Assembly: GCA_963719515.1 (NCBI GenBank)
Contig: CAVRCJ010000019.1
Span: forward strand, 32,001 to 96,000
Reading direction: 5' to 3'
Length of the DNA stretch: 64,000 nucleotides
Origin: an uncultured cyanobacterium
Lineage (GTDB): Bacteria; Cyanobacteriota; Cyanobacteriia; CAKZMO01
Each line of letters begins with the position of its first letter. The first letter of the stretch is position 1. The position numbers and the translations under genes are program-made. The notes under the pieces were generated by a model that saw only the letters and a list, made by a program, of their open reading frames with translations, did no database searches and was not told the origin of the DNA. Positions 36,670 through 41,391 of the stretch are shown here, in pieces.

Positions 36670-39234
36670 ATGAGCCGCGATGCCCTCATTGTTGGGATTA
36701 GTCAATACGAGAATCTTGAGAATCTGGGAGCCTCAGCGCGGGATGCGGAGGCGATCGCCCAGCGCCTGCACGAGCACGGTAACTTCCGCGTCAGGCGATT
36801 GCCTGAGTACGAGGATGCAGAGGGCAATCCGAAAGTGGGAAAGCGTACTCCCGTCACGCTCAGTGACCTCAAAGCCGCCATCATTCATCTTTTTACCCCC
36901 GATGGTGACAACGTTCCAGAGGCGGCGCTGCTCTACTTTTCAGGCCATGGCCTACGGGATGACGATGGAAGCGGCTATTTGGCCGCTAGCGATGTTGACA
37001 CAGCCCAAGGGATCTTTGGCTTCTCGCTGCAGGATCTGAGGCAGCTGCTGGAAGATAGCCCCGTTAAGCAGCAGATTGTGTGGCTAGACTGTTGCCACGG
37101 CGGGACGCTGCTGGACTTTACAGCAGTAGACCCCGGAACAAAAGGCGGGCGCGATCGCTGTCTGATCACGGCGTCTCGGGAGTTTGAACCCGCATTTGTT
37201 GACCGTCGAACTGACTCCAGCGTCCTGACCGCTGCGCTATTGGAAGGACTGGACCCGACAAAGAAGCCTACTGGGTCTGTCTATGCGACGGAGTTGGTGA
37301 GCTATGTGCAGGAAAAGCTAAAAAAGGCCCCTCAGGTTCCTTTAGCCTGGACAGGCCCTGACCGCATTCTGCTGACAGAGACGGACAACCCGGTGCCGCA
37401 AACGGCGAGCCCACAAAATATCCCTCGCAGCGGAGCCGTCAAGTTTGTCGGTCGGGATGCCGTGCTGCAGGATCTCCATGCCCAGCTTCAGGGCGAGCAG
37501 CCCGTGGCGGTGACGGCGGTGGCGGGGATGGGGGGCATTGGCAAGACGGAGCTGGCGATTCGCTATGCGCTGGGCTATTGGCAGGCGCACTACCCGGCGG
37601 GGGTGTGCTGGCTGCGGTGCCGGGGAGCAGAGATGGCCTCGCAGGTGGTGAAGTTTGCCGCGGTGGAGATGGGGCTGGTGGTGCCGGACGGGCTGACGAC
37701 GGAGCAGCAGGTGCGGTGGTGCTGGCGGAACTGGCAACCGGCGGCGGGGGCGGTGCTGGTGGTGCTGGATGATGTGACCGACTACGGGGCGATCGCGGAC
37801 TATTTGCCGCCGGTAGACCTGCGGTTTCGGGTGCTGATGACGACGCGATCGCAGAACTTGGGGGCGTCGGTGCGGACGGTACCGCTAGATTTGCTTTCAC
37901 CGGAGGCGGCGCTGGAGCTGCTGACCGAGCTAGAAGGCGCGGGGCGGGTGATGGCTGACCGGGTGACGGCAGAAGAGCTGTGCGATCGCTTGGGGCATTT
38001 GCCGCTGGGGGTGGAGCTGGCGGGGCGGTATCTGCAGCAAAAGCGGGATCTGCCGCTGGAGAAAATGCTGGCGCGGCTGGAGCAGAAGGGGCTGGGGCAT
38101 CGGTCGCTAGCGGAGCGATCGCCCGATATGACGGGGAGGCTGGGGGTGGAGGCGGCGATCGCCCTGAGCTGGGAGGAGCTGCAGCGAGAGGAGACACGGC
38201 GGCTGGCCTATTTGCTGAGCCTGTTTGCCCTGGCTCCGATTCCTTGGCGGCTGGTGGCGGGGTGCTTGCCGGATGAGGACGAGGAGGAGCTGGAGGACGC
38301 GCGGGACCGGCTAGTGAATTTGAGCCTGGTGCGGCGGGTGGATGAGGGGGTGTATCAGCTGCATCAGCTCGTGCGGGAGTATGTGGGGGTTAGGCTGGAA
38401 GATTCGGCGGCGGCGGATGGCCTGAAGCGGGCCTACTGTCGGGGGATGGTGGCGGTGGCGCGGCAGGTGCCGCAGTCGCTAACGATAGAGCAGGTGGCGA
38501 CGCTGGCACCTGCTGTTCCCCACATGCAGGAAGCAACAACGTCATCACTTCTGAACTGGGTTGAAGATGACGATTTGCTTTCGTCTTTTGTGGGTGTTGC
38601 ACGGTTTTATGAGGGGCAAGGGCTATATGGGCAGGCTCTGCCGTGGTGCGACGCTTGCTTAAAGCTCTCGACCGAACGCTTGGGCGAGGAGCATCCAGAT
38701 GTTGCCAGCAGCCTCAACAACTTGGCAGAGCTCTATCGTTCTCAAGGGCGATACACAGAAGCAGAGCCACTGTATGTCCAGGCCTTAGCGCTATACCGCC
38801 GCATCTTGGGCGAGGAGCATCCAGATGTTGCCACCAGCCTCAACAACTTGGCAGTCCTTTACGATTCCCAAGGGCGCTACGCAGAAGCAGAGCCGCTGTT
38901 TGTCCAGGCCTTAGCGCTATACCGCCGTATCTTGGGCGAGGGGCATCCAGATGTTGCCACCAGCCTCAACAACTTGGCAGAACTATATCGTTCTCAAGGG
39001 CGCTACGCAGAAGCAGAACCGCTGTATATTCAAGCCATCGCGATCGCCACAAAGCGTCTCGGGCCAGAGCACCCCAATACTCGAACCTTCATCGAGAATT
39101 TTGTTGTCTTGCTAAAAAAAGCGATCGCCCACAACCAAACCGACCGATTCTCGGATCACCCTTTGACGCAGAACTTGTTGGAGCAAGCACGGACGCAGCT
39201 ACAGATAGAAGAACTTCAAAGACAAGGCTTCTAA
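36670..39234 (+). CDS. Caspase (C14)-NB-ARC/STAND-TPR protein
   Basis: YFSGHG and LDCCHGG dyad motifs, Walker A GMGGIGKT, Walker B VLDD, LGHLPLGV, 42-aa TPRs. Confidence 0.9.
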   Translation: MSRDALIVGISQYENLENLGASARDAEAIAQRLHEHGNFRVRRLPEYEDAEGNPKVGKRTPVTLSDLKAAIIHLFTPDGDNVPEAALLYFSGHGLRDDDGSGYLAASDVDTAQGIFGFSLQDLRQLLEDSPVKQQIVWLDCCHGGTLLDFTAVDPGTKGGRDRCLITASREFEPAFVDRRTDSSVLTAALLEGLDPTKKPTGSVYATELVSYVQEKLKKAPQVPLAWTGPDRILLTETDNPVPQTASPQNIPRSGAVKFVGRDAVLQDLHAQLQGEQPVAVTAVAGMGGIGKTELAIRYALGYWQAHYPAGVCWLRCRGAEMASQVVKFAAVEMGLVVPDGLTTEQQVRWCWRNWQPAAGAVLVVLDDVTDYGAIADYLPPVDLRFRVLMTTRSQNLGASVRTVPLDLLSPEAALELLTELEGAGRVMADRVTAEELCDRLGHLPLGVELAGRYLQQKRDLPLEKMLARLEQKGLGHRSLAERSPDMTGRLGVEAAIALSWEELQREETRRLAYLLSLFALAPIPWRLVAGCLPDEDEEELEDARDRLVNLSLVRRVDEGVYQLHQLVREYVGVRLEDSAAADGLKRAYCRGMVAVARQVPQSLTIEQVATLAPAVPHMQEATTSSLLNWVEDDDLLSSFVGVARFYEGQGLYGQALPWCDACLKLSTERLGEEHPDVASSLNNLAELYRSQGRYTEAEPLYVQALALYRRILGEEHPDVATSLNNLAVLYDSQGRYAEAEPLFVQALALYRRILGEGHPDVATSLNNLAELYRSQGRYAEAEPLYIQAIAIATKRLGPEHPNTRTFIENFVVLLKKAIAHNQTDRFSDHPLTQNLLEQARTQLQIEELQRQGF
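38679..39056 (+). repeat. Three near-identical 126-bp TPR-coding units
   Basis: CTTGGGCGAG(G)..CATCCAGATGTTGCC recurs at 38679, 38805, 38931. Confidence 0.9.
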
Positions 39235-39251
39235 CCCCGCCGTATCGATAC

Positions 39252-39350
39252 CTCAAAAAAAGCGATCGCCCAAAACCAAACCGATCAGCTCTCCGACCAT
39301 CCCCTAACCCAGCACCATTTAGAGCAAATCCGCAACGAAGCCGCCGATTA
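39252..39350 (+). pseudogene. Orphan paralogous C-terminal tail of the caspase-STAND-TPR gene
   Basis: LKKAIAQNQTDQLSDHPLTQHHLEQIRNEAAD* versus LKKAIAHNQTDRFSDHPLTQNLLEQAR in the gene. Confidence 0.75.
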
Positions 39351-39368
39351 GAAACAGTACTCACAGCT

Positions 39369-39452
39369 CTACTCCATTAGCTTTTTTATGACAGTTTCCA
39401 ACCCCGGTACGTCAGTCTCCACAGCATCCCAAATCCGATCCGAGTCGATGCC
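39369..39452 (-). pseudogene. C-terminal remnant of a DUF86/HepT HEPN toxin
   Basis: GIDSDRIWDAVETDVPGLETVIKKLME* directly after the MNT gene. Confidence 0.7.
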
Positions 39453-39471
39453 GCTGTGATAACACCGCCTA

Positions 39472-39765
39472 TCACAGCGGCTTTGCCTCAGACAAAACCC
39501 GCTCCCTAATCCTTGGGCTGATTCCCCGCTCGGTCAAAATGTCCACCTTCCGCCCTAGTAGATCCTGTAAATCCACCAATAGGCCACCAGGGAACCAAGG
39601 CGTAATGCGCTCTAGATCGTAATCAATTAAAAAGTCAACATCGCTCTCTAGGGTTTCCTCTTCCCGCGCCACCGACCCAAATATCCGCACATTAAACGCA
39701 CCGTGCCGCGCTGCAACCCGTAGGATCTCTTCCCTATTTTCTTGAAGCGTCTTTAATAGCGTCAT
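39472..39765 (-). CDS. Minimal nucleotidyltransferase (MntA-like antitoxin)
   Basis: IFGSVAR..SDVDFL, LLGRKVD. Confidence 0.9.
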   Translation of the reverse strand: MTLLKTLQENREEILRVAARHGAFNVRIFGSVAREEETLESDVDFLIDYDLERITPWFPGGLLVDLQDLLGRKVDILTERGISPRIRERVLSEAKPL

Positions 39766-39948
39766 CGGGCCTATTCTCCCTTGGCCTACAGGTCAACAGC
39801 AGTGGTTTATCCCAGCACCACAAGTCTATCCTTAGCTTACGCCACAGCCTATTGGGTCTATGCCCTTAGCATTTCGCGAGACCAGGATATTCCCAGGATT
39901 TTTCCAGAGCCCTGGCTTCTGATTCACCAAAAAAATCCTACACAACCC

Positions 39949-39977
39949 TTGCCCTTCATCGCCCAAAGCGCTACACT
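39949..39977 (+). promoter_or_regulatory. Sigma70-type promoter
   Basis: TTGCCC-17 bp-TACACT. Confidence 0.55.
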
Positions 39978-39983
39978 CATACG

Positions 39984-40206
39984 CTAGAAGCTGTGACCCG
40001 ATGCAGCTTGCTGACCCCAAAAATTTGGTCTAACGGCCGCGATCGCCATCGCGAGTGACGATCGCGGCCTGACCCTTGGACAGATCAGAGCTGTCTTCGA
40101 GCTGCACTCATTGTATTTCAATGGTTGCAGCCATCCCAGACACGCCCAAAACCAGGGATCGACCTGATTTTTGGGTTTTCTTACCTACTTAAACCGAGAA
40201 AACCCA
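39984..40206 (+). ncRNA. Candidate structured leader or ncRNA
   Basis: About six consecutive stems; the last (TGGGTTTTCT/AGAAAACCCA) includes the A of the ATG. Confidence 0.5.
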
Positions 40207-40490
40207 TGACATTTTTATACCCAGAGCTGCCCGCACCCACCGAGGCCGCACCCACCGTGCTGACCACCCCCGACCCCGGTCCCAGCGGCGAAGTCATCCG
40301 CCACATCCTCATCGGCTCCCCCGAGGGTGTCCGCGAAACCATCTACCGGCTGCACCTGCGCCGCTACGTGGAGCAGGCCATGTGGACCGGCCCCATTGAG
40401 ATTGGTCCCAGCGGCGTCCACATCACCCAAAGTCAGGGGCAGGTGTTGTTTTACCTAATGCGGCTGCGCTCCCTCGACGTAGTGAGCTAG
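40206..40490 (+). CDS. Small cyanobacterial hypothetical protein (94 aa)
   Basis: RHILIGSPEGVRETIYRLHLRRY..W motif resembles a cyanobacterial family (from recall). Confidence 0.7.
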   Translation: MTFLYPELPAPTEAAPTVLTTPDPGPSGEVIRHILIGSPEGVRETIYRLHLRRYVEQAMWTGPIEIGPSGVHITQSQGQVLFYLMRLRSLDVVS

Positions 40491-40501
40491 CGGCGCTCAC
40501 G

Positions 40502-40546
40502 CCCCCCTGAGCAGTCCCCCCAAAAACAGTCTCACTGCTCGGGGGG
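40502..40546 (+). terminator. Strong 3' hairpin
   Basis: CCCCCC-T-GAGCAGT ... ACTGCTC-GGGGGG; no U tract follows. Confidence 0.45.
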
Positions 40547-40573
40547 ACGCCGCAGGCGGCGGTACCCGCCAGA

Positions 40574-40666
40574 GAATCGCCCTTAGCAGTGGCGCAGGAG
40601 CGATCGCCCTCAAGGGAATCGCCCTCAAGGGAATCGCCCTTAGCAGTGGCGCAGGAGCGATCGCCC
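40574..40666. repeat. Composite repeat: two 36-bp direct repeats built on ATCGCCC cores
   Basis: GAATCGCCCTTAGCAGTGGCGCAGGAGCGATCGCCC at 40574 and 40631. Confidence 0.85.
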
Positions 40667-40713
40667 CACCAAAATGCAATATTAGTAAATGACAGCATTA
40701 CTCCCCACCCCCC

Positions 40714-41391
40714 ATGCGCCCCTTTCGCTCCGACCCCTACCTCTGGATTCACCTCGCCGGTCTCGCCGCCGTGCCCCTGTGGCTAGAGCTGTGCTTCGTC
40801 GGGTTGGCCATCGGCGAGCCGCTGCTGCCCCCGGCGGTTGAGCTAGCCGTAGTTGCCGCCGTGGGGGTGCTGCCCGTGCTGTGGATGCAGTGGCAGGCCC
40901 CCTTCTATATCTTTAGCGTGCTGGTAGCGGCGCTGCCGCCCGAACGACTCACCGGCTCGCAGCGCCAGCTGCTGCCATTCTTCAAAGGGGTAGTGCCCAA
41001 GCTGCTGTCGTTGGGCGCAGCAGTCGTCTTAGTCAGCCTGCTGTGGCAGCTCGACCGAATTGCCCCCTTGGCGATGCCCGCCGCCTTGCACTGGCCAGTG
41101 CCCCAGCAGCGCTGGTTTGGCTTAGGCGTAGCGGCGATCGCCTTTTTGCTCGCCAATCTCTTTACCCAGGTGCCCGTCAGCGTGCTGCAGGTGCTGCGGC
41201 TGCCCGAGGCCAGGGTCGCCGCCGTAGCGCCCTACCCCACAGAGGCGATCGCGCAGCAGTTTACCCTCTTGGGGTGGCGGGTCAACCGGCTGCTGCCAGC
41301 GACGACGCTTCCGCAGCCTAGCCCTACCCTGCTGCCGCCGGCCATCCCTGCAGCGGACGAGATTTCTACTTCCAAAGATGAATCGCGGTAA
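40714..41391 (+). CDS. Cyanobacterial low-complexity-tail membrane protein
   Basis: DPYLWIHLAGLA, WMQWQAPFYIFS, NLFTQVPVS. Confidence 0.8.
   Translation: MRPFRSDPYLWIHLAGLAAVPLWLELCFVGLAIGEPLLPPAVELAVVAAVGVLPVLWMQWQAPFYIFSVLVAALPPERLTGSQRQLLPFFKGVVPKLLSLGAAVVLVSLLWQLDRIAPLAMPAALHWPVPQQRWFGLGVAAIAFLLANLFTQVPVSVLQVLRLPEARVAAVAPYPTEAIAQQFTLLGWRVNRLLPATTLPQPSPTLLPPAIPAADEISTSKDESR

Follow-up and report, generated by a model that had tools for sequence, protein, structure and literature searches.

The unit described here lies at positions 39949-40553 of the window, the 64,000-nt stretch of DNA from an uncultured cyanobacterium that was analysed. A promoter-like site is followed by a structured leader, the open reading frame (ORF) of a small protein and, at this locus, a GC-rich hairpin. 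Two further features are predicted on the opposite strand. The features, with the basis of each assignment, are as follows:

39949-39977, + strand: sense promoter-like site TTGCCC-17-TACACT (sequence, copy-wide pattern, logo)
39988-40009, + strand: H0, the 5' hairpin at the predicted transcript start, AAGCTG/CAGCTT (fold; all three subfamily alignments)
40016-40030, + strand: 5' strand of the outer stems P1/P2, the predicted anti-sequester strand (pairs with 40161-40175; 83% and 86% of cells paired)
40035-40069, no strand assigned: hairpin A, 14 bp, with a copy-specific 7-nt loop at 40049-40055 (11 of 13 pairs changed on both sides)
40079-40095, no strand assigned: hairpin B, GACAG-ATCAGAG-CTGTC, with a variable 7-nt loop at 40084-40090 (99.5% of cells paired; 3 of 5 pairs changed on both sides)
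40101-40131, + strand: hairpin C, GCTGCA..CATTG/CAATG..TGCAGC (5 of 6 pairs changed on both sides)
40133-40159, + strand: hairpin D, ATCCC/GGGAT (0 of its 3 counted pairs changed on both sides)
40161-40175, + strand: 3' strand of P2/P1, with GGG in common with the start-sequestering hairpin (fold, repeat scan)
40172-40206, + strand: hairpin over the ribosome-binding region and the first base of the ATG (10 of 10 pairs, 40172-40181/40197-40206)
40206-40490, + strand: ORF of a 94-aa soluble protein with a variable Pro-rich N-terminus and a conserved 60-aa beta-alpha-beta core (translation, alignment, model)
40500-40549, + strand: GC-rich 3' hairpin with no U-tract, particular to the window locus (repeat scan; not called as a terminator)
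40110-40115, - strand: predicted antisense -10 box TACAAT in the loop of hairpin C (conserved hexamer; no conserved -35)
39985-40103, - strand: predicted cis-antisense RNA of 85-120 nt, starting at 40103 with its 3' end at about 40016 to 39985 (from the -10, the +1 and strand-specific wobble)

The promoter-like site consists of TTGCCC (39949-39954), a 17-nt spacer and TACACT (39972-39977), as a first-pass annotation of the same letters had proposed, and it scores 8 of 12, which is under the threshold of the consensus scanner. The stems which that annotation placed at 39988-40009, 40035-40069, 40101-40131 and 40133-40159 were all found there by reading the sequence and by repeat scan, and its perfect 10-bp stem over the translation start and its 94-aa ORF were also recovered. 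The multi-hairpin leader of about 220 nt that it described is indeed strongly folded: the minimum free energy (MFE) of 39975-40230 is -90.7 kcal/mol (z = -6.8), and none of 200 shuffles was as good. Hairpin B had been overlooked. The multibranch closure AGATCAG/CTGATTT offered in that reading is not the structure of the family, since AGATCAG sits inside hairpin B and the strand on the CTGATTT side pairs with 40016-40030. The CCAAA/TTTGG stem is only an alternative pairing, and none of 24 copies has a two-sided change in it. The GC-rich hairpin after the stop codon exists at 40500-40549 but belongs outside the conserved unit, because similarity between copies starts near the -35 box and stops at the stop codon; the 3' flanks are unrelated and often hairpin-rich. 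Just 3' of this hairpin, the stretch 40565-40666 contains direct repeats of 45 nt (two) and 19 nt (three), which include GCGATCGC.

An MntA-like nucleotidyltransferase gene (39472-39765, - strand) adjoins the unit. A short frame 3' of this gene (39250-39470, - strand) reads like the C-terminal end of a HepT/DUF86 toxin, so that the MntA partner looks truncated. An 854-aa caspase (Peptidase_C14)-NB-ARC-TPR protein, NLR-like, is encoded at 36670-39234 (+ strand) and also adjoins the unit, and its C-terminal tail is repeated at 39240-39350.

The unit is one of about 70 copies (at least sixty) dispersed over this genome (G000). An iterated profile search of the six-frame translation gave 79 matches, some of which are pieces of split genes, on 18 of the 21 contigs, at least 2.1 kb apart and among housekeeping genes. 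Seven of the 79 matches had no anchor motif, which left 72 anchored copies. By hand count, TTG-17/18-TANNNT occurs 244-271 nt 5' of the chosen ATG in 53 of these 72. For the copy-wide counts, 60 of the 72 were taken, the unparsable copy L080 was left out and the window copy was added, giving 60 parsed copies; the energy runs left out copies without a called start (n = 55 and n = 52).

The leaders form three subfamilies with one layout, which comprises H0, P1/P2, hairpins A, B, C and D and the start hairpin. In 37 leaders of subfamilies 1 and 2, 89% of the cells pair and 21 of 38 pairs are changed on both sides. The covariation score of these leaders is 0.384, computed on a structure taken from the window copy with pairs below 60% omitted; it was reached by none of 500 shuffles, and slid versions of the structure scored 0.05-0.13. 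The search for covarying structure upstream of the homologues, suggested by the first-pass annotation as a check, thus came out positive. In the start hairpin, 3 of 5 pairs have changes on both sides in 2-8 sequences. When P2 is open, hairpin D gains a GCC/GGC extension in the folds of many copies, and the overlap between the 3' strand of P1/P2 and the start hairpin is larger in subfamilies 2 and 3.

Hairpin A came out misaligned when all three subfamilies were aligned together; the RNA model therefore rests on the 37 sequences of subfamilies 1 and 2, and it gives poor scores to subfamily 3. In this genome the covariance model gave 49 full-length matches, of which 47 lie within 450 nt of a family ORF, and one additional match split by an insertion. 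In the split leader (C1:181118-182044), an IS-like insert of about 800 bp sits just past hairpin B; the ORF is thereby cut off from its sense promoter, and the predicted antisense promoter is lost. In the copy at C3:730432 and in L004, the 5' half of the leader is swapped for a similar foreign stretch which ends just 5' of hairpin C and is possibly a small element targeting the leader. High-scoring leaders are kept beside broken ORFs at C10:638021, C7:55319, C3:759554 and C11:453799. The leaderless copies with an intact ORF that were examined by eye had lost the sense promoter too, or carried a repressor gene instead.

The whole 64,000-nt window gave no Rfam match at the gathering threshold. 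Within 39850-40750 the best E-value was 0.19, with no match to C4, and ten loci from other subfamilies and genomes gave no match at E 0.05; no riboswitch family of Rfam was matched by the leader in the window or in these ten loci. The comparison with Rfam, also proposed earlier as a check, therefore found no known family. A MITE or insertion sequence was considered and rejected, given unrelated flanks, no terminal repeats seen and no transposase match in the unit. The attC-like boxes around hairpin A were rejected as well, as the window copy holds by eye one RYYYAAC match with no matching GTT, and this is unconserved. GTACTA was seen at or near the -35 box of L025, L027, L029, L035, L048 and L060, with no second half seen; we take it to resemble half of the cyanobacterial LexA box.

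The protein is a real, conserved product under purifying selection, since in 15 independent pairs of copies the divergence at codon positions 1-2 is 0.065 versus 0.257 at position 3. In the 60-residue core a G and a W are invariant, and a Y, an L and an H are nearly so. The best 19-residue hydropathy is 0.47, which indicates a soluble protein with no hydrophobic helix, and values above 1.6 were found in only 2 of 150 representatives. The protein is thus not a small hydrophobic membrane peptide, the hallmark of classical type I toxins (Hok, Ibs, Ldr, AapA, MsoT1), and it shows no likeness to a known toxin; Ibs toxins, for example, are short hydrophobic peptides. The core is modelled as beta-alpha-beta, with pLDDT 85 for a short homologue (P0152) and 77 for the core of the window protein alone. 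A 163-aa homologue (P0033) has two tandem core domains, which hints that the single-domain form acts as a dimer.

Pfam, NCBIfam, PHROGs and PADLOC gave no family beyond single weak matches, the PDB gave no sequence match to the protein, and the Atlas gave unnamed cyanobacterial clusters only, with no named cluster for the core. None of 49 family members matched SymE in Pfam, no match to AapA was found in Pfam or NCBIfam, and the leader matched no IsoA model in Rfam. Foldseek and VIA-align returned background matches only (MinE, PII/CutA, S10, ACT-like). The best fold match among 48,161 chains had Z 4.2 (rmsd 4.2, 65 residues aligned) and none reached Z 5, and matches at this background level show neither a new fold nor a known one. 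The earlier suggestion that the protein belongs to an uncharacterised multicopy cyanobacterial family agrees with the profile searches. Together with the covariation, the copy number and the missing Rfam match, the proposal of an undescribed module of structured RNA and small protein has held up: the unit is a genuine module of RNA and protein, present in many copies and not yet catalogued.

In the phylum, the protein profile matches 24 of 201 genomes, G000 included, and the protein family comprises 773 clusters at 50% identity. The RNA model matches 5 of 151 genomes in a strict scan in which 19 candidates were scored per genome, and also 4 of 5 chosen genomes; six cyanobacterial families are represented in total. 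In the genome G017, each of 11 leader matches lies 5' of a family ORF or an ORF remnant. In the congener G202 the genes 3' of the unit are syntenic and the unit is absent from the 1.5 kb upstream of them; two further relatives likewise have no unit upstream of the syntenic genes.

Many homologues have no leader, and 13 of 47 sources gave a plus-oriented leader match. The leaderless homologues L087, L091, L092, L100, L103 and L104 adjoin regulator genes of the XRE/HTH_3 or RHH type, and inspection revealed one such copy inside G000 itself (C5:122716). The protein ORF is found either behind the leader or beside a repressor gene. Leaderless ORFs divergent from an XRE/HTH_3 gene were seen in L084-L088, L091, L097, L103, L104 and G000:C5:122716. 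Repeated, operator-like palindromes lie between the leaderless homologue and the XRE/HTH_3 gene, and a Uma2 gene often follows the homologue; this arrangement suggests a minimal repressor-switch cassette. A third upstream type was seen in L098, L099 and L102, where the same protein follows a short leader with a hairpin formed from two GCGATCGC sites.

The leader carries signals on its minus strand. At 17-23 nt past loop B, all 60 copies have a minus-strand NANNNT and 48 of 60 have TANNNT, compared with 26% and 5% in windows of the same width (7 positions) elsewhere; the hexamer was picked by pattern, and the set of positions in which it was sought had been chosen once the alignment had been viewed. 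The commonest hexamers in the 60 copies are TAAAAT (17) and TACAAT (14), while 12 of 60 have no T at -12. An A stands at the predicted antisense +1 in 43 of 60 copies. In the window copy the predicted box is at 40110-40115 and the +1 at 40103. Outside G000, the box is at offset 19 in all 11 copies of G017, and it also occurs at the same offset in copies from G158, G080 and G002. A conserved antisense -35 was not found in the 60 copies, and no clear terminator was found 3' of the antisense hairpins.

The mismatches in hairpins A and B point to the same strand. On the sense strand of the 60 copies, A and B hold 78 A.C against 13 G.U, whereas hairpins C, D and the start hairpin hold 42 A.C against 64 G.U. 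An A.C on one strand is a G.U on the other, so the mismatches of A and B pair only on the minus strand. A.C exceeds G.U in 47 of 60 copies and the reverse is seen in 1; the bias is present in all three subfamilies and, outside G000, in G017, G158, G005, G119, G156, G080 and G002. As the copies are kin, these wobble counts and the loop counts given below overstate independence, and the p-value of A.C versus G.U overstates the case. The minus strand gives the better fold of hairpins A and B in 56 of 60 copies from G000 and in 25 of 25 foreign copies, and base composition alone accounts for -4.1 of the -10.1 kcal/mol advantage. The predicted antisense RNA folds at z = -5.4; in the window copy its MFE structure is a rod and not two hairpins. 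Since hairpins A and B, the two most variable ones, look built for the minus strand, they are more plausibly the footprint of an antisense RNA than parts of a riboregulator or RNP acting on the sense strand.

Loops A and B differ from copy to copy. Loop A is distinct in all 60 copies, loop B has 54 distinct sequences in 60, and the pairs of loops A and B are distinct in 60 of 60. In 54 pairs of copies that average 91% identity elsewhere, the two loops are only 43% and 51% identical, and even copies which are 97-99% identical elsewhere still differ in loops A and B. In 15 independent pairs the divergence is 0.51 for loop A and 0.46 for loop B, compared with 0.26 for third codon positions, 0.27 for the start-hairpin loop and 0.15 for loop D. 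The H0 loop (0.35) and the promoter spacer (0.32) likewise outpace third codon positions. In G017, 10 of 11 loop-A sequences are distinct; the copies L118 and L121 of that genome are the sole pair seen with both loops identical, and they probably represent a recent duplication. Two stem-loops with paralogue-specific loops in the 5' UTR, a feature of aapA/IsoA-type loci, are thus present in the unit.

The effect of an antisense RNA on translation was estimated by folding. Opening the start region (-16 to +10 round the ATG) costs a mean of 7.8 kcal/mol in the full leader and 11.3 kcal/mol when the antisense-covered 5' part is held unpaired; the start becomes harder to open by more than 1 kcal/mol in 43 of 55 copies and easier in 2. 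When only the 5' strand of P1/P2 is shuffled, the cost is 10.7 kcal/mol (35 of 52 copies), which indicates that the blocking effect is mostly specific. The shift is only 0.9 kcal/mol in the window copy, and in either state most of the start region is paired (mean unpaired probability 0.34 versus 0.30). Of 55 copies, 17 have at least 5 U in the 8 nt after hairpin D, and in some of these termination may contribute to control; one weak terminator-like site was found at 40152-40174, against 0.7 expected.

From these observations we propose a cis-antisense switch with copy-specific loops, a model which we regard as quite probable. The sense promoter would give a transcript with the folded 220-nt leader and the small soluble protein, and an internal promoter within the leader would give an antisense RNA of 85-120 nt starting at 40103. 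This RNA would meet hairpins A and B of its own leader by loop-loop pairing, the pairing would spread over the 5' strand of P1/P2, and the outer stem would open. The freed 3' strand of P1/P2 would then allow the hairpin to close over the start codon, which would turn the protein off, and in about a third of copies a terminator would perhaps form too. Without the antisense RNA, P1/P2 would form and translation would be easier. The two variable loops would recognise their own copy alone, so that each copy would be controlled independently.

What the protein does is suggested by its surroundings. In 21 of 40 copies, the two nearest called genes on one side or the other include one of the toxin-antitoxin (TA), restriction, STAND/TIR or transposase classes, compared with 3 to 5 of 19 random regions (p = 0.01 to 0.09); the control is small, unmatched for operon boundaries and run at a stricter E-value (limits 1e-5 and 1e-8), and the classes were assigned by hand (PIN, HEPN/BrnA, DUF433, Fic, Uma2, DUF559, restriction-modification, XisHI, TIR/STAND/Roc, transposase). 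The side opposite the defence or mobile neighbour often carries a housekeeping gene. The hotspot setting described earlier is thus borne out as a tendency to adjoin defence or mobile genes. A protein that harms the cell, a step with less support than the antisense pairing, would explain both the dedicated brake and the build-up beside TA, restriction and mobile genes. A copy silenced by the RNA of its paralogues cannot be addictive, so selection would favour new loops. Granted the switch, this context makes a toxic output slightly favoured. Taken jointly, an antisense-controlled module of the type I toxin-antitoxin kind, with the protein as candidate toxin, is the explanation that we favour over each single rival, and it comes close to an even proposition without quite reaching it.

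The same antisense switch could instead control a non-toxic establishment or mobility factor, a burst of which on cell entry would help incoming DNA (an integron or island) to become established, to recombine or to get past defence. Selection would then favour new loops that evade silencing by resident copies, as in incompatibility or immunity groups. The RNA evidence fits this reading as it fits a toxin. All 4 intI matches of at least 80 bits in G017 and G158 directly adjoin a copy of the unit (in G158 on C13, C66 and C34). The intI of G017 (520818-521756, in the region C1:520818-522317) ends 98 bp from the ORF, and the orientation of intI to the copy is tail-to-tail in G017 and head-to-tail in G158. 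In G000 a 5' intI fragment, the sole one found there, lies 460 bp upstream of a copy (C18:28368-29101). G005 and G119 have no intI above the cut-off of 80 bits. The leaderless homologues divergent from XRE repressors favour the establishment factor as well, as this layout is typical of phage and ICE switches. However, most copies, the window copy included, have no integrase nearby. The copies also have no conserved ends or shared cargo, plasmids gave only 2 weak matches in 72,556 records, and no PHROG family was found. We consider an establishment factor rather unlikely, but it is the main rival to a toxin.

A sense-strand sensor (a riboswitch, a protein-binding leader or an autoregulatory site) would make the hexamer in loop C an RNA motif and would leave the loops to drift unconstrained. 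The multibranch fold closed by P1/P2 and competing with the start hairpin resembles translational ON switches, and some bases of the single-stranded linkers are invariant. However, an A.C where a G.U could stand makes the sense fold of hairpins A and B less stable, the loops diverge about twice as much as third codon positions, which neutrality does not explain, the hexamer varies like a -10 box with a purine 7 nt further on, and no Rfam riboswitch was matched. Such a sensor is improbable. Among the four roles offered by the first-pass annotation, the type I TA-like unit fits best, and a riboregulator or RNP acting on the sense strand fits less well, as A and B are built for the minus strand; its interpretation as a whole is partly supported.

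If the minus-strand RNA were the main product, as a decoy or a type III-like protein partner, the protein would bind or process it. The tuning of hairpins A and B for the minus strand agrees with this, and the beta-alpha-beta core resembles half of the RNA-binding ferredoxin-like folds, at background Z only. But many homologues lack the leader, no repeat array is present, and a protein-binding RNA needs no variation in its loops, which makes this reading very improbable.

A C4/CI-type RNA cut from the leader, with loops that pair elsewhere in the same unit or guide it to targets in the flanks, recalls the antisense RNAs of phages P1 and P4, whose loops are complementary to target sites in the same operon, and the cloverleaf-like leader with two variable 6-7-nt loops 5' of a small gene, like the XRE-adjoining homologues, would suit it; but complements of, or identical matches to, loops A and B in the copy's own promoter, leader, ORF and 3' flank showed no excess over other copies (58 copies, about 9 of them with a mis-parsed loop; 20 tests, largest z 2.2), complementarity between loops A and B showed no excess in the same run, and C4 is not matched in Rfam, so that this reading, the least probable of all, is largely refuted for targets within about 250 nt. 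Loops with no complement in their own unit are what a cis antisense partner predicts, and not what a C4-type RNA predicts.

A broader form of the antisense switch takes the 60 or more copies as mutually orthogonal switches, with two-loop barcodes under diversifying selection, which gate a soluble protein of a new family, either an establishment or integron helper or a new soluble type I toxin. Within this reading, the RNA and protein brakes would be interchangeable, since other lineages have this protein linked to XRE repressors. We put it forward tentatively, as an unlikely case rather than a probable one. If the antisense-controlled module is itself what it seems, it makes directly testable how paralogous antisense pairs are insulated and whether positive selection acts on loop specificity. 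Building sets of orthogonal RNA regulators is described as a central difficulty in cyanobacterial engineering (PMC3753616), and the family would then offer dozens of natural ones.

No description of the family was found in the texts of the mainly open-access papers covered, which deal with multicopy leaders of cyanobacteria, with antisense RNAs and type I systems, and with integrons. By sequence the unit is a member of none of the families concerned, and the likeness appears to be one of anatomy. In aapA/IsoA of H. pylori, each of six chromosomal loci encodes an antisense RNA to the 5' UTR, whose specificity is set by two kissing loops (PMC5416894). The unit resembles them in its dispersed copies, in a predicted antisense RNA opposite the 5' UTR, in two putative specificity loops and in a ribosome-binding site within alternative structures (PMC5416894). 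In contrast, AapA is a 30-aa peptide from six loci, whereas the unit encodes a non-homologous soluble protein of 94 aa in 60 or more copies (PMC5416894). IsoA covers the translation initiation region, while the predicted RNA of the unit ends about 100 nt upstream and would refold the leader; aapA also has pairing of its 5' and 3' ends and 3' processing, whereas the similarity of the unit ends at the stop codon (PMC5416894).

The plasmid systems pIP501 RNAIII and pT181 are similar in the convergent promoters within the leader, in an antisense RNA of similar size far upstream of the ORF and in leader refolding, each of these being predicted for the unit; RNAIII has 136 nt, a convergent promoter within the repR leader and two loop pairs (PMC4981023). 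The output of pIP501 (PMC4981023), and likewise of pT181, is however a plasmid replication initiator with one copy per replicon, and that of the unit is a 94-aa orphan encoded on 18 of 21 contigs. Attenuation in pIP501 is transcriptional (PMC4981023), as it is in pT181, whereas only 17 of 55 copies of the unit have a U-tract after hairpin D. The ibs/Sib loci of E. coli are likewise paralogous cis-antisense pairs insulated by two variable recognition domains, but there are five copies of them, and the Sib RNAs target the ORF and the initiation region (PMC2943612).

The single candidate cyanobacterial type I system found in the literature covered is msoT1/msoA1 of Microcystis aeruginosa (PMC12390103). 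MsoA1 is similarly a small cis antisense RNA with two hairpins, but it binds the 3' end, and its partner MsoT1 is a membrane protein of 63 aa, in contrast to the soluble protein and the predicted antisense RNA on the 5' leader of the unit (PMC12390103). The screen behind it was limited to ORFs that have a membrane helix and do not exceed 90 aa, and it could not have detected the family of the unit (PMC12390103). That a type I toxin opposed by a 5' UTR antisense RNA can be soluble rather than membrane-bound is shown by symE/SymR, although the SymE fold is AbrB/MazE-like, whereas the unit protein is predicted as beta-alpha-beta and has no SymE match in Pfam (PMC3920263, PMC5367252). A total of 26 type I loci, with all families counted, is quoted for a single E. 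coli strain (PMC3920263). If the proposed control is true, the unit represents a large antisense-controlled family of cyanobacteria with a soluble protein, and its copy number of 60 or more is well above those 26.
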